This document shows, piece by piece, positions 4,168 to 63,452 of a stretch of 64,000 nucleotides of DNA. Both the position numbers and the translations under genes were made by a program. Positions within the stretch are counted from its first letter, which is position 1; each line of letters opens with the position of its first letter. The notes beneath the pieces were generated by a model. That model was given only the letters and a program-made list of their open reading frames with translations, made no database searches and had not been told where the DNA came from. The DNA comes from Bacteroidota bacterium (GTDB lineage Bacteria > Bacteroidota > Bacteroidia > CAIKAF01), in assembly GCA_016866335.1 (NCBI GenBank), contig VGMT01000006.1, forward strand, positions 25,778 to 89,777. The letters are read 5' to 3'.

Positions 4168-4175
4168 CACATATC

Positions 4176-12164: not shown

Positions 12165-12322
12165 TTTTTTTGGGGGCGGCAGCCGGGCTTTCAGGGGTAG
12201 TCCGCTGTTGCCGGGGGCTGCCCCAGCGGGCTTACGGGGGCTCCTGAAGTCGCCGCCGCGCCGCGCGGGCCAGGCCCCGCCAACATTTGGGCTACCCGCC
12301 TCAATCCCTGCCGCGGGCCTCT
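12165..12322 (+). repeat. GC-rich dispersed repeat, copy B (forward)
   Basis: It reads 'ttttttgggggcggcagccgggctttcaggggtagtccgc...caatccctgccgcgggcc'. Confidence 0.8.
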
Positions 12323-19677: not shown

Positions 19678-19832
19678 CGTTTTTTTGGGCGGTTGCGGGC
19701 TTTCACCGGTAGTCCGCGGCTGCCAAAGGCTGGCCCAGCGGGCTTGCGGTGGCTCCTAAAGTCGTCTCCGCGCCACGCGGGCCAGACTTCGGCAGCCTTG
19801 CGGGCAACCAGGTTCAATCCCTACCGCAGCCC
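19678..19832 (+). repeat. GC-rich dispersed repeat, copy C (forward)
   Basis: It reads 'ttttttgggcggttgcgggctttcaccggtagtccgcgg...ggttcaatccctaccgcagcc'. Confidence 0.8.
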
Positions 19833-19868
19833 AAGGCTTGGGAATCGCCTGTTTTTTATTGACTGTTT

Positions 19869-21128
19869 TTAGGGTCCATTTGCTAAATGCCTTGGCTCTT
19901 TTGAATCTCCATGGCTTAATACCTTCTCCATTCGGTCCACAATTTTTTGGCTGCTTCCGGTATGCGTTTCAAACCAGCTTTTCAGCAGGATTTTTGTTTG
20001 GTCTTGCACGGCCTTTTTTTCTACATTTTTTAACCAACCAAGCGCGTCTTCCTGTGTTTTTACTCCTGCTCCTGCTCCTATCTTCAAAAAGGCCAAAGCC
20101 TCGCGGCTGTATTCATGCTTGGGGCCAAAAGCCACGGGAATGCCAGCTGCTGCAGGTTCCAATACATTGTGAACCCCGCGGCCAAATCCACCGCCCACAT
20201 AGGCTGCGTTGCCAATTCGATACAAGCGGCTCAATACACCGACTACATCCAGCACCACGATGTGCGATGCGGCCGTATTTTCTTCCTTGCTCCAATATTG
20301 GGCTAAAGGGAATTTTTCTTCAATTCGTTTTTTTATTTCGGGCGTCAACCTGTGCGGGGCAACAACCCAATTTACATCGGACCTTGCCAATACAATGGCC
20401 GCCCACAGCTCTAAATCTGCAGGCCAAACGCTCCCCAAAATCACCACAGGCTGTTCGCTACTCCACCTAAGGTGTTGGGGCCAGTCCAACGGTTGTGCCT
20501 GCAAAGCCAAGGTGCGTTCCACCCGCGGGTCCCCATCGGCAACGGCGTTTCTTAGGCCAAGTTTGGTTAAAAAGATTTTTCCTTCTTCGTCTTGGCAACT
20601 GATGCAGGCCAACTGCTGCATTTGTTCCAAAATAAAGCGGGCGGGCCTTCGCGCTAAATTTTTAGAACGCCCTGGGCTAAAAGCCGCAACCATAGCAGGA
20701 ATGCTATTTTGGCTTAACAGGCCTAGACAAATGGGCCAAATTTCAGCTTTTGTAAATACCGCCAATTTGGGTTTGAAGTGCGACAGGAATTTGGTTAATT
20801 CGGGTTTTAAGTCGCCAGGAAATCCAACCACCAAATGGGTTTTCTCTGTAGGTTTTACGATTCGGTAACCAGAATAGGAATAAAAACCAATTAGAATTTG
20901 ATGTGTAGGATTTCTGGACTCCCAACATTGAATAACCGGAAGTATTTGTTCGTATTCTCCTAAAGAAGCACAATGGAACCAAATCAGGTCGCGGTTTTTG
21001 GCGGGTTCGGGCCAAGGGTCTAAAAGCATGCTGCGCCGCCCTGCAGCTCCCTCATGCCAAAGGGAAGCCCGCCGAATCAGCCATTCCCAAAATCGAACCC
21101 CAAGTGCATAGGCCCACATTTGGTTCAA
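19869..21128 (-). CDS. kdtA: 3-deoxy-D-manno-octulosonic acid (Kdo) transferase
   Basis: It has 'IWFHCASLGEYEQ' and a GT30 C-terminal domain. Confidence 0.85.
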   Translation of the reverse strand: MNQMWAYALGVRFWEWLIRRASLWHEGAAGRRSMLLDPWPEPAKNRDLIWFHCASLGEYEQILPVIQCWESRNPTHQILIGFYSYSGYRIVKPTEKTHLVVGFPGDLKPELTKFLSHFKPKLAVFTKAEIWPICLGLLSQNSIPAMVAAFSPGRSKNLARRPARFILEQMQQLACISCQDEEGKIFLTKLGLRNAVADGDPRVERTLALQAQPLDWPQHLRWSSEQPVVILGSVWPADLELWAAIVLARSDVNWVVAPHRLTPEIKKRIEEKFPLAQYWSKEENTAASHIVVLDVVGVLSRLYRIGNAAYVGGGFGRGVHNVLEPAAAGIPVAFGPKHEYSREALAFLKIGAGAGVKTQEDALGWLKNVEKKAVQDQTKILLKSWFETHTGSSQKIVDRMEKVLSHGDSKEPRHLANGP

Positions 21129-28373: not shown

Positions 28374-28823
28374 ATGTTTCGGGTAGCATTTGCGATGTTG
28401 GTCTTGCTATTTGCTTGCCAGCCTAAAACCCAACAGGGCGAATGTTTGCCCCTGGCTGAATGGCAGCAAGAAATGGATTCGTTAAATACGCCGGGTTTAG
28501 AGCTGGTTGTTTTGGCATTGCAACAGAAAGACAGCATGAAACTTGAAAAGGGCATAGAAACAGTTCAAAGCGCACATCAGCAGTTCAAAAAGCGTTCAGA
28601 AAAGCCGGATTGTGTGCAGCCAGATAGCCTTCGGTTTCTGATGGATTTGCAGTTGAAAACCTGCGATAGTGTAGCAAGGGTTTGGTTGCCCGTTTTAAGG
28701 CCATTGTTGAAAACAAACTTGAGTTTGGACGAAAAGGAGCGGCTAAGCAAAACCTTAGAGTCCATGCAGGCCGCTGCTTCAAGGCAAAGGGATTGGGCCG
28801 AGCAGTTGATGCAAGCCAATTAA
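28374..28823 (+). CDS. Hypothetical lipoprotein
   Basis: It has a signal peptide plus Cys ('LLFACQ'). Confidence 0.45.
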   Translation: MFRVAFAMLVLLFACQPKTQQGECLPLAEWQQEMDSLNTPGLELVVLALQQKDSMKLEKGIETVQSAHQQFKKRSEKPDCVQPDSLRFLMDLQLKTCDSVARVWLPVLRPLLKTNLSLDEKERLSKTLESMQAAASRQRDWAEQLMQAN

Positions 28824-28837
28824 GGAATTGATGCGCC

Positions 28838-28990
28838 TGCGGGCGGGATTGAACGCGGTAGCACGCCAAGCCACAGGCAGCAGGGGCATGCGGGCTGCGG
28901 AGGCGACTTTAGGAGCCCCCGCAAAGCCGACATGCCCCCTGACTGTGGCTGCGGCCTACCGGTGAAAGCCCGAAACCCGCCCGAAAAACT
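28838..28990 (-). repeat. GC-rich dispersed repeat, copy D (reverse)
   Basis: It reads 'gcgggcgggattgaacgcggtagc...cggtgaaagcccgaaacccgccc'. Confidence 0.8.
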
Positions 28991-29093
28991 CCCTTTAATC
29001 GAAAGAAAATGCAGATTTGAGCGCGAAAAAGCGTTTTAAACTTTCTGGTTCAAAGATTTAACCCTATCTTTGCCAACCTTTTCAAGAAAGCCC

Positions 29094-29175
29094 GCGGATG
29101 TGGCGTAATTGGTAGCCGCGCCAGACTTAGGATCTGGTGCCGAAAGGCGTGGGGGTTCGAGTCCCTTCATCCGCA
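29094..29175 (+). tRNA. tRNA-Leu (anticodon UAG), class II with a long variable arm
   Basis: The acceptor arm pairs gcggatg with catccgc. The anticodon loop 'cttagga' gives anticodon TAG. The T-arm is 'ggggg ttcgagt ccctt'. CCA is not encoded. Confidence 0.85.
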
Positions 29176-29319
29176 CTTTTTTAAGCTGACAGTCCCTGTC
29201 CTTAAGCCCAGGATACACCGCAGAGTTGCCCCAAAATTATGGGTTGCAGCCCTTCGAAGCATCTCGGGCTTTTTTACGGACCCAAGCGCCTTCATTTTTA
29301 CGAAAGTAATTGCACCGAT

Positions 29320-38273: not shown

Positions 38274-38421
38274 TCGAATTTATTTTTGGAAAGTTACGGA
38301 AGTTTTTGGGCTTTGCCTGCTACGGGGAACCTTGATTTTAATTTGGAGGCTAAAATCCCTTAATTTAGACGAAACAGGAATGGGCTAGGCTAGGGGTTGG
38401 CTTTCAGTTTTGATGATTCAA

Positions 38422-38573
38422 ATGGGGGCGGCTGCCGGGCTTTCCGGGCTACTCCGCGGTTGCCAAAGGCCTGGCCCAGCTGGTTTGCGGGGGCTCCTAA
38501 CGTCGCCTCCGCACCTAGCGGGCCAGGCTTCGGCACCCTTGCGGGGTAGCCTCGTCAATCCCTGCCGCTGGCC
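38422..38573 (+). repeat. GC-rich dispersed repeat, copy E (forward). This copy was used as the representative.
   Basis: It reads 'gggggcggctgccgggctttccgggctactccgcggttgcc...cttgcggggtagcctcgtcaatccctgccgctggcc'. Confidence 0.85.
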
Positions 38574-38655
38574 TTTCGGTCCATTTTGCTCATCCAATTC
38601 CCGAACCCCGCCAGCAGACTTGCAAAAAACATACGGACCTTGTAACTTTAAACCT

Positions 38656-38970
38656 ATGAAAGCGGTTCGTGTTCTTGTGCTTTTTGTCCTGGCATTGGCT
38701 ATGTTGCCTTTGCCTTCTGAGTTCTATCTGTGGATTCGTGCGGTGGTTTTTGTATCGGCCCTGCTCTGTTTTTGGGAAGAATACAAAAAGGGCTTGTCCT
38801 ACTTCGCTATTCTTTTTTTGGCCTTAATGGTGTTGTTCAACCCCTTTTTGCAGGTGCATTTGCGCGAAAAGGCTTTTTGGCTGGCATTGGATTTGGGCTC
38901 AATGCTGTTGTTCGCCTACCCTTGGCTAAAGCCTTTTTTAAAGAGGTCTGAACAGGCAGAAGGCAATTAA
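38656..38970 (+). CDS. Small hypothetical membrane protein (104 aa)
   Basis: It has three predicted TM helices. The ATG taken as start lies downstream of the repeat, because the longer upstream ORF runs through repeat E. Confidence 0.4.
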   Translation: MKAVRVLVLFVLALAMLPLPSEFYLWIRAVVFVSALLCFWEEYKKGLSYFAILFLALMVLFNPFLQVHLREKAFWLALDLGSMLLFAYPWLKPFLKRSEQAEGN

Positions 38971-39758
38971 TCGCAAGCTGTTTGCAGGCCCTCCCAAGCC
39001 GTAGAGTCCAGCAAGGGTTTTTCGGTCAACTCTATATTTTCTGTGGCTTTTTTCAGGTATTCTTTCCGTTCCGATAGGTCAGGATGGCTGCCCAGCCAAG
39101 AGGGAAGGTCCGATTGGACTTCAGATTCCAGTTTTTCCATTACCCCAACCATGGAACTGGGATTAATCCCTGCGTTTTTCAGGTATTTCACCGATTTCAG
39201 GTCGGCCTCTTTTTCTAGGCTACGGTCGTAGGCCGAGGAAGACAACTGGCTCAGAATTTCTTTTATGGCTTCGCCGGCAGCACTGCCTCCGCCAGCCGCA
39301 CTTAACAGAATGGATACACCCACTTCTTTGGCCAGTTTTTTGGAAATGTGGTTCAACTGAACGTGGGCCACTTCATGACCAAGTACACCCGCCAGCTCTT
39401 CAGGACTTTCAAGGGTTTGAACCAAGCCCGAATGAATCAAAATATGCCCCCCCGGAAGGGCAAAGGCATTTATTTCGTCGTTGTTCACCAAATGCACCTT
39501 CACGCTGCTTGAATCAAGTTGGTTGGCTTCGCATATTCGAGTCCACATAGATTGCAAGGCCTCGTTGGCCTCGGTGTCAGAGCAGATTTCTTCCGAATCT
39601 TGAATGGCATCCCAAAGCAGGTCTTCTAATTTTTGTTCGGTTTTTTGAGTCAAGACGTCCAAACCCAATATGCCAATCCAGTTGATTTGAGAAAGCCCAA
39701 ACCAAAGGCCGCCAAACAGCAAAAGGGATAGGCTAAGGTGAAGAAAAAAGCGCTTCAT
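38967..39758 (-). CDS. M48-family zinc metallopeptidase
   Basis: It has 'HEVAHV' (HExxH) and a signal/TM start 'MKRFFLHLSLSLLLF'. Confidence 0.7.
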   Translation of the reverse strand: MKRFFLHLSLSLLLFGGLWFGLSQINWIGILGLDVLTQKTEQKLEDLLWDAIQDSEEICSDTEANEALQSMWTRICEANQLDSSSVKVHLVNNDEINAFALPGGHILIHSGLVQTLESPEELAGVLGHEVAHVQLNHISKKLAKEVGVSILLSAAGGGSAAGEAIKEILSQLSSSAYDRSLEKEADLKSVKYLKNAGINPSSMVGVMEKLESEVQSDLPSWLGSHPDLSERKEYLKKATENIELTEKPLLDSTAWEGLQTACD

Positions 39759-40192
39759 GGTTTGGGTTTGCAAAGTAGGTGGGTTAAAGGGCCGTACATC
39801 CACCAACTAAGGTGTTGTCCTTTTCGGGTTTCTATGGCCGTAACAATGGTAACGGCAAATTCAAGCAGGTTGTACAAAATGGCCACAGCCATGTAGGCCA
39901 AATAAGCGTTGCTCAGGGAGCGGTCGGTTAAAATGATGGACCAGGTCCAGCCCAAGGCAAAGGCATTGATCAGGACGATGGAGATTTGCGAGAGCAGGGC
40001 CTGAAGGCAATGCCAGCGTACAAAGTAGCTGCTTTTTCGTTGCCCCATGTAGTAGCCCCAAGTGGCAATCAGGTTGATTATGGGGAACGGCAAACCAACA
40101 ATCACCACCACCAGCGACATGAGGTAAGCGTTCGAGGCTTTTTCGGTTTCGTATTCCTCTGGCCTGTATGGAAAAGCGGGTTTAGAAATCAT
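39755..40192 (-). CDS. Hypothetical integral membrane protein
   Basis: It has four hydrophobic helices. Confidence 0.45.
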   Translation of the reverse strand: MISKPAFPYRPEEYETEKASNAYLMSLVVVIVGLPFPIINLIATWGYYMGQRKSSYFVRWHCLQALLSQISIVLINAFALGWTWSIILTDRSLSNAYLAYMAVAILYNLLEFAVTIVTAIETRKGQHLSWWMYGPLTHLLCKPKP

Positions 40193-40605
40193 AGCAGTTT
40201 AAAGATATTCCAAATCCAATTGGCAAGCAAGAGCAAAGCGAAGGGCCAAGCGAATTCGGGGCGTTTTAATTTGGCTTCGGCCTGTTGATAGGCATTTTTC
40301 AGGCTTTCTGATTTTGAAAAAAAATCGTAGGCAATCCAAATGGGAATGGCCAGCATAAAAGCCAATGCGAGGTACCCCAGGGGATTGGTCCAAAGGGCAA
40401 GTTCAAATTGACCCTGGCTCAGAGCTGCCGCAGAACGGGTGGTTCCGCAGGCGGGACAGGGAATGCCCGTTAGCCTGCGTGTTGGGCAAGCAAGCAAAGA
40501 AGATTCTTCGGGACCGCCCCAAACCAAATAATACAGCAACCAGGCATGGCCGGCTAGGGCCAAACCTCCCAACAAAAGGTAAATCCTTTTGCCGGATTGA
40601 CGCAT
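40189..40605 (-). CDS. DUF2752-like membrane protein
   Basis: It has a CPTRRLTGIPCPACGTTR metal-binding-like motif and TM helices. Confidence 0.5.
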   Translation of the reverse strand: MRQSGKRIYLLLGGLALAGHAWLLYYLVWGGPEESSLLACPTRRLTGIPCPACGTTRSAAALSQGQFELALWTNPLGYLALAFMLAIPIWIAYDFFSKSESLKNAYQQAEAKLKRPEFAWPFALLLLANWIWNIFKLL

Positions 40606-40606
40606 C

Positions 40607-40945
40607 TTAGTATAAGAAGGGCTGGATTTTCTCGAAGTTTTTTTGGCGGGTAGCGCCTTGGATTTGGAACCAGTCGATGATGGCCCAAATGCCCAAACCG
40701 CCGCAAGTTAATAGTTTGCCTACGCCCATGCCCGTATCGCCAATAAAAAACCGGTCAATACCGTACGTTCCAAGAAAAATGGAAATAATAAGTGCTGTTT
40801 GTGGGTCTTTTAGTTGCAAGGTCTGAATCATAGCCCATTTTGATTCGTCTAGGGCTAGGAGTCGGTCTCTAACTTGGCCAATGTGTTGACTTTCAAAGTA
40901 CTTTCCATTGGTTAGGATATACATATCCACTTTTTGAGAATCCAT
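40607..40945 (-). CDS. TM2-domain membrane protein
   Basis: It has '[34 protein letters not shown]'. Confidence 0.55.
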
Positions 40946-41065
40946 AGTAATTTAGATTGGTTAGCACCAAGGTAACCAATAATTTTTAAATCAAAATAAC
41001 AAGGGCTTTAATCGTGGAACAATTATTGCAGTTAATTCGTTCTTAATCAATATACTCGTTGTTTT

Positions 41066-42151
41066 ATGGTTATAGGCATATTGGCTGAGGCAGAACTTCC
41101 CATTGTATCGATGGTGCCAGATACCGCAGCTCGGCTAACGAAAGCGGGGCATCGCATTTTGATAGAACAGGGTGCTGGCTCGGCCGCGGGCTTTCCAGAC
41201 CACCTGTATGCCGAAGTGGCCGAGCTGAAAACAAGGGCAGAACTGCTTGCCGAATCGGATATTTTACTGAGTGTCCAGGTGCCCACCTCCACAGATTTGG
41301 CCCAAATTCGTCCAGAAGCCACCTTGATAACCAATACCGAAATCTTTGCTTATCCAGATTCCCTTAACGTATTTGAGGGCTATGCGTTCAGGGTTTTAAG
41401 CATGGACGAAATTCCCAGAACCAGCTTGGCCCAAAGCATGGATGTGCTTAGCAGCATGGCTTCGCTGTCGGGTTACCGTGCCGTGTTGGAAGCCTCGACC
41501 TTGTTTACCCGGTATTTCCCCATGATGATTACAGCGGCGGGCAGCATTAAACCAGCCAAGGTCTTGGTTTTGGGCGCCGGAGTGGCCGGATTGCAGGCCA
41601 TTGCCACCGCAAAACGTTTGGGCGCTCAGGTGGAGGCCTTTGATGTGCGATCGGCCGTGAAAGAAGAAGTTCAAAGTTTGGGAGCCCGTTTTGTAGAAGT
41701 GCCTGGAGCTAAGGAAGACGGCGGGGCAGGTGGTTATGCAGTAGAGCAAAGCGCGGACTACTTAGCCCGGCAAAAAGAAGAGGTACAACGCCGCGCTGTT
41801 CAAAGCGACATTGTTATTGCTACGGCTCAAATTCGTGGAAAACGAGCTCCCCTGCTCATTACCGAAGAAACCATTCAAGCCATGCGCCCCGGCTCGGTGG
41901 TGGTTGACCTGGCCGCTTCAACCGGAGGCAACTGCGCTTTTACCCAAGACGGAAAATGCATTGAAGTAAATGGAGTACATATTTTGGGCAATAGCCGCTT
42001 GGCCTATTCCATGCGGCAAGATGCCAGCCTGTTGTATGGGAACAACGTGTACCATTTTTTGACCCATTATTTAAAACAGGCCGAGCAAAACGCTTTAATG
42101 CACGATGAAATTTGTCGGGCCGTTTGTGTGCATCCCAAATCTGAATCTTAA
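41066..42151 (+). CDS. pntAA: NAD(P) transhydrogenase subunit alpha, part 1
   Basis: It has an AlaDH/PNT fold and 'VLGAGVAGLQAI'. Confidence 0.85.
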   Translation: MVIGILAEAELPIVSMVPDTAARLTKAGHRILIEQGAGSAAGFPDHLYAEVAELKTRAELLAESDILLSVQVPTSTDLAQIRPEATLITNTEIFAYPDSLNVFEGYAFRVLSMDEIPRTSLAQSMDVLSSMASLSGYRAVLEASTLFTRYFPMMITAAGSIKPAKVLVLGAGVAGLQAIATAKRLGAQVEAFDVRSAVKEEVQSLGARFVEVPGAKEDGGAGGYAVEQSADYLARQKEEVQRRAVQSDIVIATAQIRGKRAPLLITEETIQAMRPGSVVVDLAASTGGNCAFTQDGKCIEVNGVHILGNSRLAYSMRQDASLLYGNNVYHFLTHYLKQAEQNALMHDEICRAVCVHPKSES

Positions 42152-42161
42152 TCCTGTTTTT

Positions 42162-42473
42162 ATGAATGCTTTGATTGAAATACTATCGGCGAACTACCTG
42201 CTTATATACCTGCTGGTGTTTACCATAATTCTGGGTTTTGAAATCATCAGTAAAGTGCCAACCGTGCTGCATACTCCCTTGATGTCGGGGTCCAATGCCA
42301 TTAGTGGCATTGTCATTATTGGGGCCATTTTGCTAATCCGTCAAAGCCCGTCAGATGCATGGATTGAATTGACGGCGGGCATGGTTGGTTTGGCCTTGGC
42401 CATGGTGAACGTAGTGGGCGGTTTTGCGGTAACCCAGCGCATGCTCCAGATGTTTAAAAAGAAAAAGAAATAA
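42162..42473 (+). CDS. pntAB: NAD(P) transhydrogenase subunit alpha, part 2 (membrane)
   Basis: It has about three TM helices. The start was taken at 'MNALIEIL', just after the pntAA stop. Confidence 0.8.
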   Translation: MNALIEILSANYLLIYLLVFTIILGFEIISKVPTVLHTPLMSGSNAISGIVIIGAILLIRQSPSDAWIELTAGMVGLALAMVNVVGGFAVTQRMLQMFKKKKK

Positions 42474-42476
42474 GCC

Positions 42477-43874
42477 ATGAATACAGCAATTTGGTTTGAT
42501 TTGGCTTACTTGATGGGTTCGGTAGGCATCGTTTGGGGCTTGAAGCGGATGAGTTCGCCCGACAGCGCAGGGGCAGGGAACACCTTGGCCGCCTTAGGAA
42601 TGGGTTTGGCCATACTTGCGGCCATTTTTTATCCTTTGGGCGATGCCGACAACGGAAATCTTGCTTGGATTCTTGGTGGATTGGCCTTGGGGTCGGCTGC
42701 TGGTTACATTTTAGCGAAACGCGTTGCCATGACAGCCATGCCGCAAATGGTTTCATTGCTGAACGGCATGGGCGGAGCTACCGCGATGATTTTGGGTTTG
42801 GTGGAATACCTGCGACTTGGTTCTGCCACCACTGATTTTGGGTCGAACCTTACCGTGGTATTCGCTCTGCTGGTTGGGGCGGTTTCGTTTAGCGGCAGTG
42901 TGTTGGCTTACCTGAAACTGGAGGGGAAGGTGGACGACAAGAAAATCACCCTTTCCTTTCATTCTGTTTTTAATTTATTGTTGCTGGCTTTGGTCTTGGG
43001 CGGCACGATGGCCCTTAGCTATTCTACCGACTGGGGCATTGGACTTTTGGTACTGTTTACGCTTTTGGCCTTGTTTTACGGACTTAGTTTCGTTGCGCCC
43101 ATTGGCGGAGCAGATATGCCAGTTGTGATTTCCTTGTTAAACAGTTTTACCGGTATTTCGGCTGCAACAGCCGGTTTTGTATATGGCAACTTAATGATGA
43201 TTGTGGGCGGAATTTTGGTGGGAGCTTCAGGAACAATATTGACCTTAATGATGTGCAAGGCCATGAACCGGTCGTTGTGGAATGTCATTGTGGGCGGTTT
43301 TGGCAGTGTGGCTGCCGGAGTGGCCACCGATACGAATCAACAGGTTAAATCGGTTGGATTGGCCGATGCAGCGATTCAGTTGGCCTACAGCAAAACCGTT
43401 TTGGTGGTTCCAGGTTATGGATTGGCTGTGGCTCAAGCCCAAAAAGTGTGCAAGGAATTAGACGAACTGCTCGAGGCAAATGGGGTAGATCTGCGCTACG
43501 GCATTCATCCGGTGGCAGGTCGAATGCCCGGGCACATGAATGTATTGTTGGCCGAGGCCGACGTGCCCTATCCCAAATTGCTTGATTTGGAAGAGGCCAA
43601 CGACTTTTTAAACCAATGCGATGCCGTGGTAGTTATTGGGGCAAACGATGTGGTAAATCCCGCTGCCGAGCGCGACCCCAGCAGCAGCATTTATGGAATG
43701 CCGGTATTAAAAGTTTGGCAGGCCAAAAACACCATAGTCATGAAACGCAGCATGGGCAAAGGGTACGCCGGCATTGAAAATCCCTTGTTTTTTGAAAAAA
43801 ACACCTACATGCTGTTTGGCGATGCCAAGCAAACCTTGCAGGCGCTTGTTGCCGAGGTGAAAGGCTTGGGTTGA
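42477..43874 (+). CDS. pntB: NAD(P) transhydrogenase subunit beta
   Basis: It has a TM N-terminal domain and a C-terminal NADP(H)-binding domain ('VVPGYGLAVAQAQ'). Confidence 0.9.
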   Translation: MNTAIWFDLAYLMGSVGIVWGLKRMSSPDSAGAGNTLAALGMGLAILAAIFYPLGDADNGNLAWILGGLALGSAAGYILAKRVAMTAMPQMVSLLNGMGGATAMILGLVEYLRLGSATTDFGSNLTVVFALLVGAVSFSGSVLAYLKLEGKVDDKKITLSFHSVFNLLLLALVLGGTMALSYSTDWGIGLLVLFTLLALFYGLSFVAPIGGADMPVVISLLNSFTGISAATAGFVYGNLMMIVGGILVGASGTILTLMMCKAMNRSLWNVIVGGFGSVAAGVATDTNQQVKSVGLADAAIQLAYSKTVLVVPGYGLAVAQAQKVCKELDELLEANGVDLRYGIHPVAGRMPGHMNVLLAEADVPYPKLLDLEEANDFLNQCDAVVVIGANDVVNPAAERDPSSSIYGMPVLKVWQAKNTIVMKRSMGKGYAGIENPLFFEKNTYMLFGDAKQTLQALVAEVKGLG

Positions 43875-44001
43875 TTGTTGGTCTTGGCTCCCTGCGAACC
43901 AATGGGAAATGCCACAGCAACAGGACAAACTCCAAGCTACCCCAGAAAGGACGCCCATCGTCAAATACCCGTCCATGGTCTGACTTGGCAAATGGCCAAG
44001 A

Positions 44002-44150
44002 GGCGCGGCAGGGATTGACGAGGCTACCCCGCAAGGGCCGAAACGGCAGCCGGCCCTTGACCGGCAGAGCGACCTTGGGAGCTACTGACGGGCGCGGGCT
44101 GGCCCGGTTTCGGGCCGCGGAGTAGCCCGGAAAGCCCGGCTGCCGCCCTA
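44002..44150 (-). repeat. GC-rich dispersed repeat, copy F (reverse)
   Basis: It reads 'ggcgcggcagggattgacgaggctaccccgcaaggg...ggagtagcccggaaagcccggctgccgccc'. Confidence 0.8.
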
Positions 44151-44258
44151 ATTTATTAACCTACAAAAATGAGCATTATGTTTTACGTAAACTCGTAAGA
44201 TGCTGCCCATGCAGCGCGTCTATTTCCTACCTTTATAATCGGAAATTAAAATTCTTTT

Positions 44259-47200
44259 ATGGGTTCATTTCGAATTCGACCTGTTCGGTTAAAACGCTGG
44301 TTTTTTGGTTTTTTGGCCCTGTTGGCCCTGCCCTTTTTTTTGCTTGCCTGGGTCTATATTAAACAAGATGAATGGGTTCAGCAAGGCATAAAATGGGCCA
44401 ATCAGCATTATGCGGGCCAGGTGGTTCTTCAGGGCAGCCACATTTCCCTTTTTGCCACATTTCCTTATGTTTCTATTGATTTAGAAGATGTGTATGTATA
44501 TGAAGGGAAGGAACATACCCATTTACCCATAGTCCATGTGCAAGATGCCTACATAGGCTTTAGTCTTTGGTCGATTTTAATGGGCAATTACGAGGTAAAA
44601 AGCATTAAGCTTTCGGGCGGCAGGGTTAATTTAATTCAACACACCGATGGCAGTTTTAATATCAGCAGGGCCTTTGATACAGGTCAAGAGGCCAAGGCCG
44701 ACACCTTGGAACAACCACTGAATGTACAGTTAAGATCTTTGGTTTTAGATCGGGTTGAAGTTCATAAAATCAATGAAACGAGTCAGTTGGACGTAGATTT
44801 GGTGGTTGAACAGGCCAAGGCCAGCATAAAACAAGAAGGGAAACAAGTGGCTTTGGATTTGGCGGCCAAGTTTACCCTAAATGTAGTGCAGGGCGGCGAT
44901 ACCACGTTTTTAAAGCACAAGCATTTTAAAATAGATACCCAGCTTGAATACAACGGGAATACGCAAAGCCTGAACATTCAGCCTTCAGAGGTTTGGTTGG
45001 AAAAGGGGAACTTTAACCTGCAGGGCAAGATGGGATTTGCCGGTGAAATGCCGGTAGATTTACAGGTGCAGGGGGCCAAGCCCAATTTTGATTTGCTCAT
45101 TGCCTTTGCCCCCGAAGAGCTTATTCCTACGCTCGAATCTTACCGCAACAAGGGAAAAATCTTTTTTGAAGCCAGCATTAAGGGTGAAACAGCAGGAGGT
45201 CAATGGCCAGCTATCGATGCAAAATTTGGCTGCGATGACGGGCAAATTGAAAACCCAGAAACGGAAAAGCGCCTTGATGATATGGATTTTAAGGGCTATT
45301 TTACTACGGGAGCGAAACGCGATTTTAGCAGCATGGAATTTGGGTTGACTCAGTTCAAAACCAAGCCCGATGCCGGAATTTTTAGTGGCAATTTGAAGGT
45401 GGTTAATTTTTTAGAACCCGATATTCAGCTGCAGTTGGATTCGGAATTCAACCTGGATTTCATAGCCAAATTTTTCAACCTGAAGAATTTGAAAGACTTA
45501 ACGGGTTCTGTGGCCTTGCAAATGAACTTTCACGACATTATCGATTTGAATCACCCGGAACGAAGCATTGAAAAATTGAACGAATCGTACTATACCCGGC
45601 TTAACATTCGAAACGTTGGGTTTAAGAGTGGCAACTTTCACTTGCCCATAAAAAACTTGAATTTGCAGGCCGAAATGCAGGGCCATGAGGCCTTAATTCG
45701 GCAGTTTTCGGTTTCGGTTGGCAAGTCAACCCTGAAAGCCTCTGGAAAAATAAGCGATTTGCCAGCTATTATTCACCATACCAACCTGCCGGTGTCCTTT
45801 GATTTTAATCTGGAATCCAGTTTGCTTGATTTGGCTGAATTGACCTATTCCGATTCCTTAAAGGCATCTGGAATCAACGATCAAATTCGGAATTTAAAGA
45901 TTAAGGCTTCTTTTTTGAGTTCGGCTAAGGCCCTCACCGAATCGGCCTATTTGCCCGAAGGGGAATTTGTTCTGCACGATTTTCAAGGCCGCTTTGCCCA
46001 GTATCCCCATGCTTTGCACGACATTAAGGGGGATTTCTTTATTCGTAAAAACGACCTTCAAATCGCCGATTTTTCAGGAGCCATTGATGGCAGCGATTGG
46101 CATTTTTCGGGCAAGTTAAGCCGCTACGATCTCTTTATGGACAGCAGCTTTTCGGGCGATGCCGTTGTTCAGGTTGATCTGCGCTCGGATTTGCTGCGGC
46201 TAGAAGACCTGTTTTCGTACGCCGGAGAAAATTATGTGCCCGAAGATTACCGGCATGAGCTGTTTAAGAAGCTTGAACTGCATGGCTCAACCACCTTTCA
46301 TTTAAAGAATAAAACCCTGCATTCCATCGATGCCAAGTTAGACAACTTAAGCTGCAGCATGCTGGTGCATAAAAGCCGCTTTGAACGTTTTAGTGGCCGA
46401 ATGCATTATGAGGACGAACATGTTCAACTGGAAAAATTCGGAGGAAAAGTGGGGCACAGCGATTTTTTGGTTGACCTAACCTATTACACTGGCAAAGACC
46501 CCGCTACCAAAAAAAGAGACAATGCTTTTTATTTGAAGTCGAATCACTTAGACTTAGATGAACTTCTTGCCTACAACCCTCCACCAAAATCAGCAAAGGC
46601 CCCTGCGGTAAACCACGACTCGGTGTTCAATGTTTTTTCGGTCCCCTTTACCGACATGCGCCTAAGGGCAGATGTTCAGCATTTAAGGTACCACCGGTTT
46701 ATGCTAGACCGCATCAAAGCCGATCTGCGCATGCAGCAAAACCACTGGTTGCACATCGATGCCCTGGCCCTGGATGCGGCGGGAGGCCATATTGATTTGA
46801 AGGGCTATTTCAATGGGTCAAATCCAAAGGAAATCTATTTTAGCCCTCAATTCAAAGTGAAAGGCATCGATTTGGATAAGCTGTTGTTGAAGTTCGAAAA
46901 TTTTGGGCAAGACCATTTGGTTTCTGAAAATCTGCATGGGAAGTTAAATGGAGAAATAAAAGGGAAACTCCGCATGCATACCGATTTGGTTCCAATGATC
47001 GACAAATCGGAACTGGTATTGAACATAGAAGTTCTGAATGGCCGGCTTGAGAATTATAAGCCTATGGAGTTGTTGGCCGATTATTTCAAAGACAAAAACC
47101 TAACGAAAATTCGGTTTGATACGCTAAGGAACAGCTTTGAGCTGAAGAACAACACCCTATACATTCCCAGCATGACCATTAATTCCTCTTTGGGATTTAT

Positions 47201-47456
47201 GGAACTTAGCGGCAAGCAGGGTTTGAATATGGAAATGGATTATTACCTTAAAATACCTTTGAGTTTGGTTGGTCAGGCGGCATTTCAGCGTTTGTTTAAG
47301 AGAAAGAGGGAAGAGGTGGATCCCAACACCGAAGATGCCATTCAATACCGAGACCAAAACCGAAAACAAGCCTTTATTAGTGTAAACCTGAAAGGAACAA
47401 CCGACAACTACAGCATTGCCTTGAAAAAGGAAAAGATCTCAGGGAAAGAGCCCTAG
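44259..47456 (+). CDS. Large membrane-anchored protein, AsmA/TamB-like
   Basis: It has an N-terminal TM anchor followed by a 1000-aa beta-rich body. The call is by architecture only. Confidence 0.5.
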   Translation: MGSFRIRPVRLKRWFFGFLALLALPFFLLAWVYIKQDEWVQQGIKWANQHYAGQVVLQGSHISLFATFPYVSIDLEDVYVYEGKEHTHLPIVHVQDAYIGFSLWSILMGNYEVKSIKLSGGRVNLIQHTDGSFNISRAFDTGQEAKADTLEQPLNVQLRSLVLDRVEVHKINETSQLDVDLVVEQAKASIKQEGKQVALDLAAKFTLNVVQGGDTTFLKHKHFKIDTQLEYNGNTQSLNIQPSEVWLEKGNFNLQGKMGFAGEMPVDLQVQGAKPNFDLLIAFAPEELIPTLESYRNKGKIFFEASIKGETAGGQWPAIDAKFGCDDGQIENPETEKRLDDMDFKGYFTTGAKRDFSSMEFGLTQFKTKPDAGIFSGNLKVVNFLEPDIQLQLDSEFNLDFIAKFFNLKNLKDLTGSVALQMNFHDIIDLNHPERSIEKLNESYYTRLNIRNVGFKSGNFHLPIKNLNLQAEMQGHEALIRQFSVSVGKSTLKASGKISDLPAIIHHTNLPVSFDFNLESSLLDLAELTYSDSLKASGINDQIRNLKIKASFLSSAKALTESAYLPEGEFVLHDFQGRFAQYPHALHDIKGDFFIRKNDLQIADFSGAIDGSDWHFSGKLSRYDLFMDSSFSGDAVVQVDLRSDLLRLEDLFSYAGENYVPEDYRHELFKKLELHGSTTFHLKNKTLHSIDAKLDNLSCSMLVHKSRFERFSGRMHYEDEHVQLEKFGGKVGHSDFLVDLTYYTGKDPATKKRDNAFYLKSNHLDLDELLAYNPPPKSAKAPAVNHDSVFNVFSVPFTDMRLRADVQHLRYHRFMLDRIKADLRMQQNHWLHIDALALDAAGGHIDLKGYFNGSNPKEIYFSPQFKVKGIDLDKLLLKFENFGQDHLVSENLHGKLNGEIKGKLRMHTDLVPMIDKSELVLNIEVLNGRLENYKPMELLADYFKDKNLTKIRFDTLRNSFELKNNTLYIPSMTINSSLGFMELSGKQGLNMEMDYYLKIPLSLVGQAAFQRLFKRKREEVDPNTEDAIQYRDQNRKQAFISVNLKGTTDNYSIALKKEKISGKEP

Positions 47457-51213: not shown

Positions 51214-51287
51214 ACTTTGAAAAGCGAAAGGGTTAGCACCCTACATGGTTTTGAATCAACAACAAACAGGAACGAAACCAAGGGGCT

Positions 51288-51435
51288 TGGGCCCCGGATT
51301 GAAGCGGCAGTACGCGCGGCAGGGGCGCCGCTAAGTGGGCAGGCGGAGGCGACCTTGGGAGCCCTACGCACTGCCATACTTAGCCCGCCCCTGCGAGCGG
51401 ACTAAAGCTGAAAGCCGGAAAGGCCCCCAAAAAAA
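51288..51435 (-). repeat. GC-rich dispersed repeat, copy G (reverse; the most diverged copy)
   Basis: It reads 'gggccccggattgaagcggcagtacgc...gcggactaaagctgaaagccggaaaggccccc'. Confidence 0.65.
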
Positions 51436-51439
51436 GAAT

Positions 51440-54907: not shown

Positions 54908-56068
54908 TTAACGGTTCAGGTAAATGTATCCGGTCAAGGGGGCGGTTCCGTTGCCCAAATCAAGAATATAGTAATACGTGCCGGTAGGCAGTTCTTCGCC
55001 CAAGGGCAGGGTTCCTTGAACAGCGGTTCCAGCCCAATCGTTTAAATACGGCGCAGCTTCAAGGACCAAGGCTCCCCAACGGGTGTAAATTTTCAAGGAA
55101 TGGTTCGGGAATTCCATTAATCCCTGAATCACGTACAGGTCATTGTAGCCATCTGCGTTCGGCGAAAAGGCTTGGGGAACATTAAAAATATTCGGGCAAC
55201 TCGGATCCATGGGTTTGGGTTCACATGGATTTAAAGGGTCCGATCCCAACGCAAGTTCTTGTCCGTTCAACGTGGAATCGGCATCGCAGTCCAATTGATT
55301 CCAGGCCGATGTCGGGGGAAGGGTTTGCGATGCAAGCACAAAACTGCAGGGGTCAAGGGGGTTGCTGCCGTCGGCCTGTTCTTGCCCGTCGATTACTCCA
55401 TCTCCATCGCTGTCTGGATTTTGTGGATCGGTTCCTATTCCTATTTCAACTCCGTTGGTTAAGCCGTCCGAATCGCAGTCCAACTGCATCCACGCTAGAG
55501 CGGGGGCCAGAATGTTCTGGTGCACAACCAGGTAAGAACAAGGGTTTAGCGGATTGGTAGCGTCGTTCATTTCGGTGCCATCCACCACCCCGTCTCCGTC
55601 GGTGTCGGGATTTAACAGCAGGGTCCCCGCCGCCAACTCTTCTCCATTGGTTAGCCAATCTCCATCGCAATCCAAATCGAACCAGGCGGAACTGGGAGTT
55701 AAACTTTGACTCATTAATTCGAACGAGCAGGGTTTCAAGGGGTCCGAAAAATCCGTGATTTCAACCCCGTCGGGCACTCCGTCTCCGTCGGTATCTGGAT
55801 TCAATGGGTGCGTGCCCAGCTGCAGTTCCTGCAGGTTGGTCAATCCGTCGTTGTCGCAATCCAACACATTCCAAGTGGCCGAGGTTGTTTCTGTTTGATT
55901 GGCTAAAACAAAAGAGCAAGGGTCGTTGGGGTTGGTTCCATCGGCAACCTCTACCGAATCTACCACTCCGTCGCCGTCGGCATCAAAAGCCATGGGCGCA
56001 TCAAAAGCCGAAGCATGCAATGGCAGTGCCGAAAAAACTAAAAGCAGCAAGGCGATTCGCAGGTGCAT
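54908..56068 (-). CDS. T9SS cargo protein with five TSP3-like calcium-binding repeats and a type-B (gliding-motility-associated) C-terminal sorting domain
   Basis: It has a signal peptide 'MHLRIALLLLVFSALPLHASA'. There are five ~75-aa repeats of the form 'DCD.DGLTN..EL..GT.PL.PDTDGDGV.DG.E..D...PL.PCSF'. The C-terminus is '...PNADGYNDLYVIQGL...YTRWGALV...GTYYYIL'. Confidence 0.7.
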   Translation of the reverse strand: MHLRIALLLLVFSALPLHASAFDAPMAFDADGDGVVDSVEVADGTNPNDPCSFVLANQTETTSATWNVLDCDNDGLTNLQELQLGTHPLNPDTDGDGVPDGVEITDFSDPLKPCSFELMSQSLTPSSAWFDLDCDGDWLTNGEELAAGTLLLNPDTDGDGVVDGTEMNDATNPLNPCSYLVVHQNILAPALAWMQLDCDSDGLTNGVEIGIGTDPQNPDSDGDGVIDGQEQADGSNPLDPCSFVLASQTLPPTSAWNQLDCDADSTLNGQELALGSDPLNPCEPKPMDPSCPNIFNVPQAFSPNADGYNDLYVIQGLMEFPNHSLKIYTRWGALVLEAAPYLNDWAGTAVQGTLPLGEELPTGTYYYILDLGNGTAPLTGYIYLNR

Positions 56069-56298
56069 CGAACCGGAAAAGCCTTTAAACCGCAACAAAA
56101 CAGCGAAAAGGCCAACGTTGGATTTGGTGAACATAATACCATTCAGGCATTTAAGTGCCTATGCAAATAAAGTGATAAATTTAATTTTTACCGCCATTCT
56201 GCAAAAGATTAACAGACAAACAATTCCAATTTCTTGCATGCAATTGCATTAAAAACAGGTTAAATTTAAGCTGAACAAGGTAGTTTTGAATCTTGTTT

Positions 56299-56452
56299 TT
56301 ATTTGGGGCGGCTGCGGGCTTTCAGCGCTAGTCCGCAGCCGTTTGCCTGTTGCAGCGGGGGTAAAAGTAGCTCCTGAAGTCGCTCTTTTCCCCCTGCTGC
56401 AGGTCGGGCAATCGGCTTTGCGGGCAAGCGGCTTCAATCCCTGCCGCGGCAC
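56299..56452 (+). repeat. GC-rich dispersed repeat, copy H (forward)
   Basis: It reads 'ttggggcggctgcgggctttcagcgctagtccgcagcc...cggcttcaatccctgccgcggcaccc'. Confidence 0.75.
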
Positions 56453-56624
56453 CCCACTGTTTCTTAAATCTTCCTCTTTAACAGAAAGTTAAGCATAGGT
56501 TAACCGATTGGGTAAAACCGAAATTTCTTTCCTTATGCAACGTTAAAATTATTTTGAATGGAGGTGGTCGCAAAGAAAAAATTTTACCTTTAGCCTCATA
56601 GTTATAACTTTAAAGTATTCGCTG

Positions 56625-59600
56625 ATGTTCAAACACGTACTTCACCAAATCGGACGATTGAGCTTTTTAGCCTTTATTGGCTGGGCTTCAATCGCGCATT
56701 CCAATGCCCAATGTGTAAATCCTGCGACCCCAACAGCGGCTGTTCAGGCGGCCAATTGCGGCCAAACAGCCACCTTAACCGCCAGTGGCTCCACAGGGAA
56801 TTATACCTGGTATAATGTTCCTATCGGCGGTACGGCTCTAGCCCAAGGAAACACGTTCACTACTCCCGTTTTGTATGGCACTACTACCTATTATGTGGCT
56901 GCTTACCAATCGGGCAACCCTTCTTGCTTAAGCTCTCGGGTTGCGTTGATTGTTAGCCCAACTCCTTTGGCCTCGCCATCGGTTCAAGGAGCCACTGTAA
57001 CCTGCGGATCCTCCGCTACCATTTATGCTGCCGGCTCTACCGGCAACTACTTTTGGTATGCTGGCCCCAGCGGTGGTCCTGTATTAGCAACGGGCGGTTC
57101 GTTTACCGCTTCGGTTACCCAAACAACTATTTTTTATGTAGAAGCGGCCAGTACGGCCAATCCCATTCAGACTGCTACCTTTAATTATACAGGAGGTCAA
57201 CAAAACTGGACCGTTCCTGCGGGTGTTTTTAGCATCGATTTCGATGTGCGCGGCGCTCAGGGAGGAACAAATGCATGGAACAACGGCGGAACCGGCGGTC
57301 GAGTTACTGGTAAATTGGCCGTTACCCCTGGCCAAACCATTTACTTTTATGTTGGCCAACAACCTGGAAGCGGCGGATGTTGCAACTACATTTCAGCTCC
57401 CGGTGGCTGGAATGGAGGCGGAGCAGGTTACTCCTATTATAATGGCGACCAAGCCCGTGGCGGTGGTGGCGCTTCCGATATTCGTGTGGGTGGAACAGGT
57501 ACCAACAACCGCGTTGTGGTGGCTGGTGGCGGTGGCGGTGCCGGTGGTCAAGCCTGCAACGGAAACCAAGATAGGGGAGGAAACGGTGGCGGTTTAACCG
57601 GCCAGTCAGGATGGCGCTGCAGCAGCAATGACCTTTGCTACGTAGGCTCGGGTGGTTCACAAAGCGCAGGTGGCCAGGGTGCCCAGTGCGGAAGCGGACA
57701 AAACGGTTCCTTGGCTCAAGGCGGTAACGCTTGGGGTGCATACCAAAATTACTGCTGCCCTTATCCCGCTGGCGGTGGTGGCGGTGGTTACTACGGCGGC
57801 GGCGGCGGTTACAACTACGGCGGTGGCGGTGGTGGATCTAGCTATGCAAACCCCAACAGCACCAACAGCGTGGCCCACGTTCAAGGATTTCAATCAGGAC
57901 ACGGTCAAATTATTATCAATTATATTACTCCTTACTGCGTTAGCGCCCGCGTACCTGTGCAGGTCGCTACCACTCCCATTCCAAACCCAACAGTGGCTGC
58001 TGCCAACTTAACCTGCGGCGATACAGCTTTGTTGCAAGCAACCGGTACCGGTTTCTTTAATTGGTACAGCGCTTCAACCGGCGGAACCCTTTTGCAAGGC
58101 AACTCAGCCAACTACAGCATTCCTTTCGTTACCGATAGCATGACCGTTTGGGTAGAAGCTCTTTCAACGGCCAACCCAAGTGGTTCGGTTAACTTTTCTT
58201 ACACCGGCGGAACCCAAACTTGGGTCGTTCCTGCGGGCGTTTATTCAGTGGTGGTTGACGCTAAAGGAGCACAGGGCGGAACCCCAAGTTGCAACAGCGG
58301 TTCAACCGGCGGCAATGGGGGGCGTGTGCAAGCTACTTTAGCCGTTACACCTGGGCAAACCCTGTACATCAATGTGGGTGGAACAACAACCACCCCTAAT
58401 GCCGGCTGGAACGGCGGAGGTCAAGGCGGTACAGTATCTTGCAACAGCATCTGCCAAAGTGCTGGTGGTGGTGGCGGAACCGATTTGCGCGCCGGTGGTC
58501 AAACGCTGAACAACCGCGTTCTTGTTGCCGGCGGCGGCGGCGGCGGCGGTTCATGGTGCAACAGCGAGCGTGGTGGCGCTGGCGGTGGAACAACAGGCCA
58601 ACAAGGCTACCGTTGCAACAGCCAAGACTGCTACACAGGTACTGGCGGTTCTCAAACCGCAGGAGGCCAAGCTGGAAACTGCTGCAACACAGGTCAAAAC
58701 GGAGCCTTCGGAATTGGTGGCGATGCCTATCAGTGTGCTTATGCCGGCGGTGGCGGCGGTGGTTGGTATGGTGGCGGCGGTGGTACCGGTTGCTGGAGCG
58801 GCGGCGGCGGCGGCGGCGGCTCATCGTACGCCGATCCTAACCTTTGCTCTAATGTAACCCACAATCAAGGAACTCAAACTGGAAATGGAGAACTTAGCCT
58901 TTCATACACGGTACCCTATTGCCAAAGCCAAAGGGTGGCTGTAAACGTAAATGTGAATCCACTTACAGCTCCAACCAATGTTATCGGAGATAGCGTACTT
59001 TGCGGACAAACGGCTGTGGTTTCTGCTACTCCAGCCAATACTCCCGTTCATTGGTATCCCGACCTTACCAACAATACTCCTATTGCCATTGGTTCAAGCG
59101 TGTTCCTGCCTGCCATGTATGGCTCTGATACCTTGTATGCAACTTCAGCAAGAACCAATACGCTTTCAGGTACGCACACGTTTTCGTACACGGGTGCAGT
59201 TCAAACCTGGACAGTACCCGCAGGAATCACTTCGGTTTCTGTTGATATGTCAGGCGCAGAAGGTGGAGCTGCAGTATCGAACCCTTCTCAAAACTTAGGG
59301 GGAAAAGGTGGTCGGGTTCAAACAACCCTTTCAGTAACCCCAGGTCAATTGCTTTATATTTACGTGGGTGAAAAACCCAGCGCCACCACAGGTGGGTGGA
59401 ACGGCGGCGGCAACGGCGGCGGCAACAGCGGCGGCGGCGGCGGCGGTACCGACATTCGTTTGGGCGGCCAAAACTTCTCAGATCGAATTTTAAGTGCTGG
59501 TGCAGGCGGTGGTGCCGGTTGGGCTTGCGGCAACAACGACTATGGTGGAGATGGCGGCGGCAACGGAAATGCGGCAAACGGAATTCGCTGCGGACAGCAA

Positions 59601-63401: not shown

Positions 63402-63421
63402 TAAAGTCAATTTGAATTCGA

Positions 63422-63452
63422 AAGGCCGCCCAATTGGGCGGCCTTTTTTTGG
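63422..63452 (+). terminator. Rho-independent terminator of the giant gene
   Basis: The stem aaggccgccc / gggcggcctt has loop aatt and is followed by T8. Confidence 0.8.

Follow-up and report, generated by a model that had tools for sequence, protein, structure and literature searches.

Introduction

The Flavo-1 motif (Rfam RF01705) was described in 2010 with 239 representatives and no assigned function (PMC2864571 and its supplement), and Weinberg et al. rated it a likely RNA on the grounds of covariation (PMC2864571 supplement). It is among the most abundant bacterial small RNA (sRNA) families in Rfam (PMC9029176), and in the transcriptome of F. psychrophilum its matches lie "indistinctly" sense or antisense, many of them outside transcribed regions (PMC9723704). 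Here we describe a GC-rich hairpin element, related to Flavo-1, that occurs eight times in a 64,000-nt stretch of a Bacteroidota genome (assembly GCA_016866335.1, contig VGMT01000006.1, positions 25,778 to 89,777), hereafter the window.

We propose that the copies are a GC-rich branch of Flavo-1 and constitute a REP-like, non-autonomous hairpin repeat that would be recognised strand-specifically by a presumed factor, which on balance we take to be the probable reading. What is new is the GC-rich branch itself, which is invisible to Rfam, its behaviour as a dispersed repeat, and a rule that governs the relative orientation of neighbouring copies.

Results

One long hairpin with invariant loops

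A covariance model built from the eight window copies (R1) and run on the window with filters off returned exactly eight strong matches, at 99-156 bits; the next unrelated match scored 9 bits and the reverse strands of the copies at most 30 bits. The three-motif pattern GGCTTTC..GCTCCNNNNGTCG..TCAATCC likewise matched eight times, where shuffled sequence predicted 0.00 matches, and repeat finding recovered pieces of all eight copies. An initial annotation of the window, made from the sequence alone, had placed eight copies at these positions, and R1 added no other. The units are 155-161 nt long, have a GC content of 62-72% compared with ~48% for the window and all lie between open reading frames (ORFs), four on each strand, so that the intergenic position and high GC content claimed at the outset are borne out. 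Eight units of ~160 nt in 64 kb amount to ~2% of the window, or about one copy per 8 kb. Throughout, the strand of a copy is the one that reads T-run-GGGCGG...TCAATCCCTGCCGC, which is opposite to the Rfam orientation of Flavo-1.

Column identity in the alignment of the eight copies is ~60%, and the consensus given in the initial annotation therefore overstated their likeness, while the motif islands and the base pairing are conserved. The islands without variation in the eight copies are GGG.G, C.GGCTTTC, TA..CCGC, GCTCC....GTCG and TCAATCC, and the conserved bases are the unpaired or mismatched positions of the hairpin. The reference copy (38418-38576) forms a single long hairpin at -101.4 kcal/mol (z = -7.0), in line with the long imperfect hairpin of paired arms that had been suggested, and its opposite strand folds nearly equally well (-94.1 kcal/mol, z = -6.3). 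RNAalifold on the eight copies predicted one hairpin of 52 pairs, and at 35 of these the copies show compensatory changes. Across 116 distinct copies from related genomes, 89.7% of the cells of this structure were paired, compared with 71% in shuffled controls and 40-50% when the partners were slid by 1-3 columns, and 47 of the 52 pairs showed double-sided changes; the refuting outcome named at the outset, an alignment lacking conserved pairing, did not arise. Wobble in the variable stems barely favours a strand (~100 G.U versus 73 A.C, apart from one U.G pair that is conserved in 88 of 106 copies).

From its 5' side the unit begins with a T-rich flank, which in most copies precedes the basal helix. 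The 5' strand of this helix (GGGCGGCTG, 38426-38434, + strand, in the reference copy) pairs with 38562-38568 and covaries among copies as GCGGC/GCCGC, GCGGG/CCCGC and GCGTT/AACGC. There follows an invariant, pyrimidine-rich internal loop in which CGGGCUUUC stands opposite UCAAUCCC; its 5' motif CGGGCTTTC (38436-38444, +) does not vary in the eight copies nor in more than 100 others. Above the loop, ~40 freely covarying base pairs lead to an invariant 10-nt apical loop (GC-UCCUAAAGUC-GC; GCTCC-NNNN-GTCGC at 38493-38506, +) with G-C and C-G closing pairs. On the descending arm the invariant motif TCAATCCC precedes TGCCGC, the 3' strand of the basal helix (38555-38568, +), and the unit ends in a weakly conserved 3' tail (RGGCC.C..TCA). 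The apical-loop motif occurred 117 times inside copies and never outside them in ~770 kb. A tRNA-like or T-loop reading of TTCAATCC was discarded, as its first T varies and there is no T-stem.

A GC-rich branch that the Flavo-1 model does not see

The curated Flavo-1 model matched the window copies neither at its gathering score (42 bits) nor at E<=10, in the whole window or in a 241-nt slice, and it had no match in 62 kb of GC-rich copies from related genomes. The two families meet in low-GC relatives, which keep the motif islands and have AU-rich stems (loci L056, L178, L118 and L123, with 31%, 38%, 46% and 48% GC, respectively). R1 detects three of these at 56 bits (L123, E = 4e-12), 44 bits (L178, 8e-9) and 38 bits (L056:67-227, 3e-7), and at the same places, on the opposite strand, the Flavo-1 model scores 41.7 bits (L123, 6e-6), 37.8 bits (L178, 7e-5) and 36.7 bits (L056:70-214, 1e-4). 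A canonical Flavo-1 copy of 48 bits lies 5 kb from the low-GC relative in the same locus (L056:5286-5425) and bears a related apical loop, GCTTCTTAGGTCGC.

The motifs lead to the same family. When TCAATCCC and CGGGCTTTC of the element are reverse-complemented, they read as the Flavo-1 core, ccGAUuGaAG ... CGgAaAGCggG: CGGGCTTTC becomes the GAAAGCCCG of the core (consensus CGgAaAGCggG), and TCAATCCC its GGGATTGA. Every window copy, once reverse-complemented, carries GGGATTGA(A/C)G and (C/T)(G/T)GAAAGCC(C/G)G at the base of the hairpin. Judging by these intermediates and motifs, the element would best be filed as a divergent, long-stem, GC-rich branch of Flavo-1 that the curated Rfam model does not see.

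Multiplication in a freshwater Flavobacteriales clade

The three-motif pattern was also used to scan 185,579 species genomes; the counts are of the matches listed and are thus lower bounds. Almost all listed matches came from four Flavobacteriales metagenome-assembled genomes (MAGs), LaPlata_bin-1703, casp15-mb.160, ErkenSummer_bin-6618 and binchicken_co113_57, and the blocks retrieved from the first three held at least 52, 26 and 31 copies, respectively. Pattern matches in other phyla, among the matches listed, had no R1 match and were put down to chance. Freshwater metagenome contigs yielded 112 further copies in a scan designed to skip the commonest form. The element, which had been suspected to be genome-wide on the strength of one window, thus has hundreds more copies in related genomes, and in an uncultured freshwater Flavobacteriales clade the GC-rich branch has multiplied until one copy stands every 5-8 kb. 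The family pattern had no match among viral contigs. A search of a plasmid collection gave no match. A separate search with the core pattern found a 66-nt canonical Flavo-1 core on a contig classed as viral (IMGVR_UViG_3300028602_000059, L188:211-276), without the apical motif of the long form. An exact window protein was also present on metagenome contigs from several JGI samples and one ENA assembly, which indicates that the DNA comes from an uncultured population; six metagenome contigs of this population carry the reference copy without any difference.

Close neighbours are inverted

Among adjacent copies within single loci, 62 of 64 pairs are in opposite orientation. Copies less than 4.5 kb apart form 48 opposite pairs and 0-1 same-orientation pairs; after collapsing orthologues the count is 35 to 0 (binomial p ~3e-11), and a looser collapse to ~18-19 pairs leaves p < 1e-4. 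When every pair was counted, with contiguous blocks joined, there were 38 opposite and no same-orientation pairs below 4 kb, 10 and 1 at 4-5 kb, 12 and 5-6 at 5-8 kb, and 12 and 11 beyond 12 kb. The rule thus fades past ~6 kb and orientation is random beyond ~12 kb; four same-orientation neighbours are found at 6.4-10.7 kb. Example loci are L096:1567-7840, L142:6114-10953 and, in the window, 38417-44157. A leftward extension of the window, for which the orientation of the next copy had been predicted, held no copy within 9.8 kb.

Copies that face each other with their 3' sides come as close as 31 nt, whereas those that face each other with their T-rich sides are never less than 1.4 kb apart. 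The seven tight pairs, separated by 31-71 nt, always have their 3' sides facing, and only one of them lies clearly between convergent genes.

Gene direction was rejected as the cause, as the rule is independent of it and persists within runs of co-directional genes. Local inverted duplication was rejected as the source of the neighbours, whose similarity (0.66) is that of the background (0.64), and a global orientation parity ("domain walls") was abandoned since contiguous blocks and all pairs show a short-range rule. We know of no description of a kilobase-range orientation rule for REP, ERIC or MITE (miniature inverted-repeat transposable element) families. The literature searched for such a rule offered only two partial analogues, the alternation inside bacterial interspersed mosaic elements (BIMEs), which spans tens of bases (PMC2817692), and the pdif sites that alternate around dif modules on Acinetobacter plasmids (PMC13141974).

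Placement at gene ends, with no promoter or terminator and no mobility genes found

For 190 copies with callable neighbours the context was convergent in 64, tandem in 101 and divergent in 25, and 165 of them (87%) abut at least one gene end, with convergent regions enriched and divergent ones depleted. In tandem contexts the element is sense to the genes 53 times and antisense 48 times. Its 5' side commonly begins ~16 nt past a stop codon.

The T-run that the initial annotation gave to each copy exists as a tendency, with 72-80% T at positions -1 to -4, and fails as a universal feature: the copies at 38422 and 44002 have AAAT and AAATTA in its place. Upstream, the Bacteroidetes -7 box TAnnTTTG shows no peak and stays at background level (4 of 195 in the expected bin). 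The 3' flank has no T enrichment, no U-tract and no consistent second hairpin on either strand, and a terminator-like 3' tail was accordingly rejected. Of the roles that had been offered as options, a small-RNA family is disfavoured by the lack of a promoter at a fixed distance, and transcription termination by the T-run, which stands 5' of the hairpin where a terminator would have it 3'. Past the basal helix, weakly conserved sequence (RGGCC.C(C)TCA, a few bases, then CTAAA) is clearest in the LaPlata/casp15 lineage, for example in the flanks of L008:5228-5386 and L043:1451-1609, and the element may therefore be ~190 nt rather than 160 nt long.

The longest word common to the 5' and 3' flanks of a copy is distributed as in shuffled flank pairings (188 copies), giving no sign of a target-site duplication. 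No clear half elements were found: the apical-loop pattern never occurred outside a full copy, and two short 8-mer motifs occurred outside copies at about twice a rough chance estimate. There were no multicopy ORFs in ~640 kb of three MAGs and no parent insertion sequence (IS) or ORF-bearing version in the 0.64-1.47 Mb searched; at its base the hairpin forms an imperfect inverted repeat. An approximate probe for IS200 TnpA matched none of 1555 ORFs, and the 64-kb window has no transposase or recombinase gene. The initial description as REP/MITE-like thus holds in that the element is a dispersed structured repeat; it is not a MITE in the strict sense, having neither target-site duplication nor, in the DNA searched, a parent IS.

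The genes enclosed by close inverted pairs are smpB, DUF1295, a homocysteine methyltransferase, a pyridine nucleotide-disulphide oxidoreductase (Pyr_redox_2/Pyr_redox_dim) and a rhomboid gene. A small gene between inverted pairs, considered as a candidate RAYT, was identified as smpB. This gene, whose product is the partner of transfer-messenger RNA (tmRNA), is bracketed alone by an inverted pair 547-624 nt apart in several populations (L134:8504-9371, L140:3153-4096 and L115:11420-12364).

Persistence and compensatory change at orthologous sites

Copy 1 of the window has an orthologue in the ErkenSummer MAG (L058:4598-4757) that is 90% identical in a region of 83% identity, and copy 7 has one in the LaPlata MAG (L093:461-616), 80% identical over aligned columns in a region of ~70% identity. 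The LaPlata and casp15 MAGs are ~98% identical and have every compared copy in common. Over all loci, 110 orthologous comparisons at >=80% flank identity had both sites filled, and none of them revealed a clear empty site. Presence or absence was seen only between genomes ~70-75% identical; exact insertion boundaries could not be read from filled and empty sites, as intergenic DNA is too diverged between genomes that differ. In one such case copy 6 and an AsmA/DUF748-like gene are both absent from the orthologous site of the LaPlata MAG (window 43875-47456 versus L093:5037-5157), where the gap between pntB and folE is only ~120 nt.

Accessory genes are present or absent right beside copies in populations whose flanks are 85-98% identical. 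They encode a 535-aa glycine-rich secreted protein, a 321-aa lipoprotein-like ORF and an 841-aa outer-membrane-like protein, and the loci concerned are L108:1076-2856 versus L114, L171:7421-8277 versus L132 and L117:3198-5887 versus L143. Copies mark sites of accessory-gene gain and loss.

In 30 comparisons of orthologous copies, 100 double changes kept the pairing and 34 did not, and single changes broke 121 pairs and kept 26. Computed from these counts, double changes are ~4.6 times commoner than independent substitution predicts. Such a pattern would follow from any of three processes, namely selection that keeps fixed loci paired, conversion by copies elsewhere, or templated correction of one arm of a quasi-palindrome by the other.

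The window copies and their neighbours

Copy 1 (875-1034, - strand, R1 135.8 bits) lies between an OmpA/PD40 gene that ends at 810 and an OmpA/TSP3 gene that starts at 1084, and copy 2 (12165-12322, +, 138 bits) between two genes of the - strand, an amidase/CUB gene and neuB. Copy 3 (19678-19835, +, 155.6 bits) is found 34 nt 3' of the stop codon of a kdtA-type transferase gene (19869-21128, - strand, Pfam PF04413). Copy 4 (28831-28991, -, 143.9 bits) lies 8 nt past the stop of the ORF 28374-28823, and is 103 nt upstream of tRNA-Leu (29094-29176, ARAGORN). Copy 5, the reference (38417-38576, +, 154.2 bits), lies where an AMP-binding gene and a DUF6804 gene diverge. Copy 6 (43997-44157, -, 132.6 bits) separates pntB (42477-43874) from the AsmA/DUF748 gene, and copy 7 (51281-51437, -), the most divergent at 99.1 bits, separates a GH3-family gene from an OmpA/TPR gene. 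Copy 8 (56297-56455, +, 148 bits) is in the divergent region between two cargo genes of the type IX secretion system (T9SS), 54908-56134 and 56625-63401 (Pfam CHU_C and Por_Secre_tail). The neighbours named initially, kdtA, pntB, tRNA-Leu and T9SS cargo genes, were correct by Pfam and ARAGORN.

The mechanical ORF list contains a 186-aa ORF with a TTG start (38410-38970) that begins inside copy 5; gene calls on matching contigs give the real DUF6804 gene ~104 aa. GC-rich copies can thus seed false N-terminal extensions, and annotating them avoids spurious ORF calls such as this one.

The larger of the two cargo genes beside copy 8 (56625-63401) encodes a 2258-aa protein with four ALK/LTK-type glycine-rich domains and Ig-like and PKD domains. 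Its GGC-rich DNA gives rise to several internal repeat families, and the exact protein sequence was not found in the assembly collection searched. Sub-threshold Rfam matches (Leu/Phe leader, RNAI, NsiR4) cluster just past the stop codon of this giant gene, at 63391-63451, which is probably an ordinary terminator hairpin. Elsewhere in the window, the tmRNA gene (3803-4170) is closely followed on its downstream side by two tandem arrays, one with a 70-nt period and ~3.6 copies (4282-4537) and one with a 195-nt period and 3 copies (5196-5780); the gene calls on a matching metagenome contig (L186:8943-9494) place three tandem 53-aa ORFs of the - strand across the 195-nt units.

Discussion

The element is a structured, high-copy, intergenic hairpin family, related to Flavo-1, that has no promoter or terminator of its own. 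Its orientation is indifferent to that of the genes, its copies persist at orthologous sites and evolve by compensatory change, and direct pairs are excluded at short range. It avoids divergent promoter regions and is gained and lost between genera. In its behaviour the family is a dispersed palindromic repeat of the REP/ERIC type, and we infer that this, rather than a set of small-RNA genes, is its nature.

Under the REP-like reading that we favour, the hairpin would form in single-stranded nucleic acid, either in DNA at the replication fork or in RNA upon read-through, and a trans-acting protein that reads the invariant loops would recognise it strand-specifically. Selection for recognition would keep the stem paired, possibly helped by templated correction between the arms. 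Same-strand units within a few kb would not be tolerated, as they would present equivalent ends that can be used together, by enzymatic excision from the 5' end of one unit to the 3' end of the next or by slippage between the conserved 14-15-nt motifs at hairpins that stall the fork. Either joining of same-strand ends or motifs would delete the genes between them, which would explain the strict inversion of close neighbours. The single-stranded zone at the fork is ~1.5-2 kb (PMC5027513), a length comparable in order of magnitude with the reach of the rule. As a side effect for the host, a hairpin of about -100 kcal/mol next to gene ends would be expected to form a barrier wherever it is part of a transcript.

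Several points weigh against this proposal. Membership in Flavo-1 is argued from intermediates and shared motifs, the window copies themselves being unscored by the Flavo-1 model. Rfam models the opposite strand, and wobble counts barely favour either one. No mobilising or binding protein was found in the parts of the genomes searched. No insertion polymorphism appeared between close relatives, so that the copies may be ancient and not mobile at present. An RNA that functions for the host would also show compensatory change at fixed loci. IS200/IS605-type elements show replication-linked uniform orientation, and a single-strand mechanism of their kind predicts uniform orientation along a replichore; the window has four copies per strand.

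A bolder version would make Flavo-1-type hairpins in general the substrates of an orientation-sensitive DNA transaction and not RNA genes, same-strand copies within ~4.5 kb being lethal or unstable; the candidate transactions are single-strand excision and insertion, or hairpin-promoted template switching. We offer this only tentatively and think it the less likely outcome. If it were true, flavobacterial chromosomes would be punctuated by hairpins whose close neighbours are obligatorily inverted, a motif unexplained since 2010 would be accounted for, and a class of repeats would be added with a positional rule that we have not found described for REP, ERIC or MITE elements. The ban on close same-orientation neighbours in any case provides a concrete, testable handle on mechanism.

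The RNA interpretation adopted by Rfam (Gene; sRNA), in which the hairpin is transcribed alone or within an mRNA and its loops bind a protein or RNA in a regulatory or housekeeping role, draws on the very strong covariation and the invariant loops, on structure and motifs that are kept across stems of 31% to 72% GC, on the compensatory changes at orthologous loci, on the U.G pair conserved in 88 of 106 copies, and on the earlier rating of Flavo-1 as a likely RNA (PMC2864571 supplement). Yet there is no promoter motif at a fixed distance and no terminator after either strand, sense and antisense copies are about equal in tandem contexts (53 versus 48), G.U is only slightly commoner than A.C in the variable stems, and Flavo-1 matches in F. 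psychrophilum are sense, antisense or outside transcribed regions (PMC9723704). One copy per 8 kb also far exceeds any known sRNA gene family, and a functional RNA leaves the placement, the density and the absence of close same-orientation neighbours unexplained. We therefore regard it as unlikely.

Somewhat more doubtful still is a role in cis for the host, as a transcription barrier, terminator, insulator or stabiliser of mRNA 3' ends between transcription units, comparable to what has been suggested for REP and ERIC. In its favour, the hairpin is extremely stable, 165 of the 190 copies sit at a gene end with the 5' side often ~16 nt past a stop codon, convergent contexts are enriched and divergent ones depleted, and the seven tight inverted pairs (31-71 nt) fit into short intergenic gaps, one of them clearly convergent. 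However, the T-run precedes the hairpin and no U-tract follows it in either orientation, both orientations are equally frequent in tandem contexts, 13% of copies lie in divergent promoter regions, related genomes lack copies at orthologous sites with no visible replacement, and the orientation rule is not predicted.

That the copies are site-specific recombination sites bounding exchangeable gene modules, like the inverse pdif (XerC/D) sites of Acinetobacter plasmids, is improbable: close neighbours are always inverted, as described for pdif (PMC13141974), accessory genes come and go beside copies with flanks 85-98% identical, and the AsmA-like gene is missing jointly with copy 6 in the LaPlata MAG, but the arms covary as a unit, which frequent internal crossover would break, the enclosed genes are housekeeping ones (smpB, the pyridine nucleotide-disulphide oxidoreductase, pntAB), alternation is not strict beyond ~5 kb (four same-orientation neighbours at 6.4-10.7 kb), no inversions were seen between the compared genomes and no recombinase gene was found nearby.

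Comparison with known systems

The pdif sites resemble the element in that adjacent asymmetric sites are inverse around genes (PMC13141974). They differ in being 28-bp Xer sites whose halves come from different modules, whereas the element is a 160-nt hairpin with co-evolving arms, is chromosomal, surrounds housekeeping genes and follows a rule that decays with distance. The co-evolution of the arms, as read from the alignments, would weigh against a module system of the pdif kind.

The IS200/IS605 and PATE elements offer imperfect, mismatched hairpins that are read on one strand (PMC5027513, PMC3201880); like the element, which follows TTTT in 72-80% of copies, they sit 3' of a short fixed sequence and make no duplication. 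If the two ends had to lie on one strand, inside the single-stranded stretch at the fork, this would explain why direct pairs are excluded at short range only. Unlike the element, the IS200/IS605 and PATE elements have distinct hairpins at their two ends; in the window each strand carries four copies, and the sampled DNA yielded no Y1 transposase.

With ERIC/IRU and Correia (NEMIS) elements the family has in common the form of imperfect palindromes of 100-160 bp, intergenic and in either orientation, that fold into long hairpins and are co-transcribed with their neighbours, as we presume for the element described here. Correia elements, however, carry terminal inverted repeats along with a duplicated TA, and copies of ERIC closely resemble one another in sequence. 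The element described here makes no duplication, and its copies are ~60% identical with conservation limited to loops and pairing.

The REP/REPIN-RAYT system is extragenic, high-copy, enriched at gene ends and built of hairpins with compensatory changes (PMC3116915, PMC3333891), and the element is also like it in being strand-asymmetric, with a conserved short 5' sequence, no target-site duplication and, as proposed here, a factor encoded elsewhere. REPs are 20-40 nt long, however, and REPINs are ~100 nt and made of two inverted REPs, whereas the element is one hairpin, 155-161 nt in length, whose internal and apical loops are conserved. A RAYT gene flanked by copies was not found in the DNA searched, and BIMEs alternate in orientation over tens of bases and not kilobases.

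From canonical Flavo-1 the window copies differ by an extra basal helix and a GC-rich stem of ~120 nt, by a density of one copy per 8 kb, by REP-like placement and by a short-range orientation rule that the literature searched does not mention. Both are confined to Flavobacteriia/Bacteroidota, have many copies per genome and no established function; the canonical apical loop, GCUUCUUAGGUCGC, is related to GCUCCUAAAGUCGC, and a common core on the opposite strand (GGGAUUGAAG ... CGGAAAGCCCG) surrounds a covarying hairpin of variable length. As the initial annotation had allowed, a link to a described family, here RF01705, leaves the observation standing and removes most of the novelty: the family connects to Flavo-1 and its novelty is therefore limited, the element being a new subfamily of a known motif and not a new kind.

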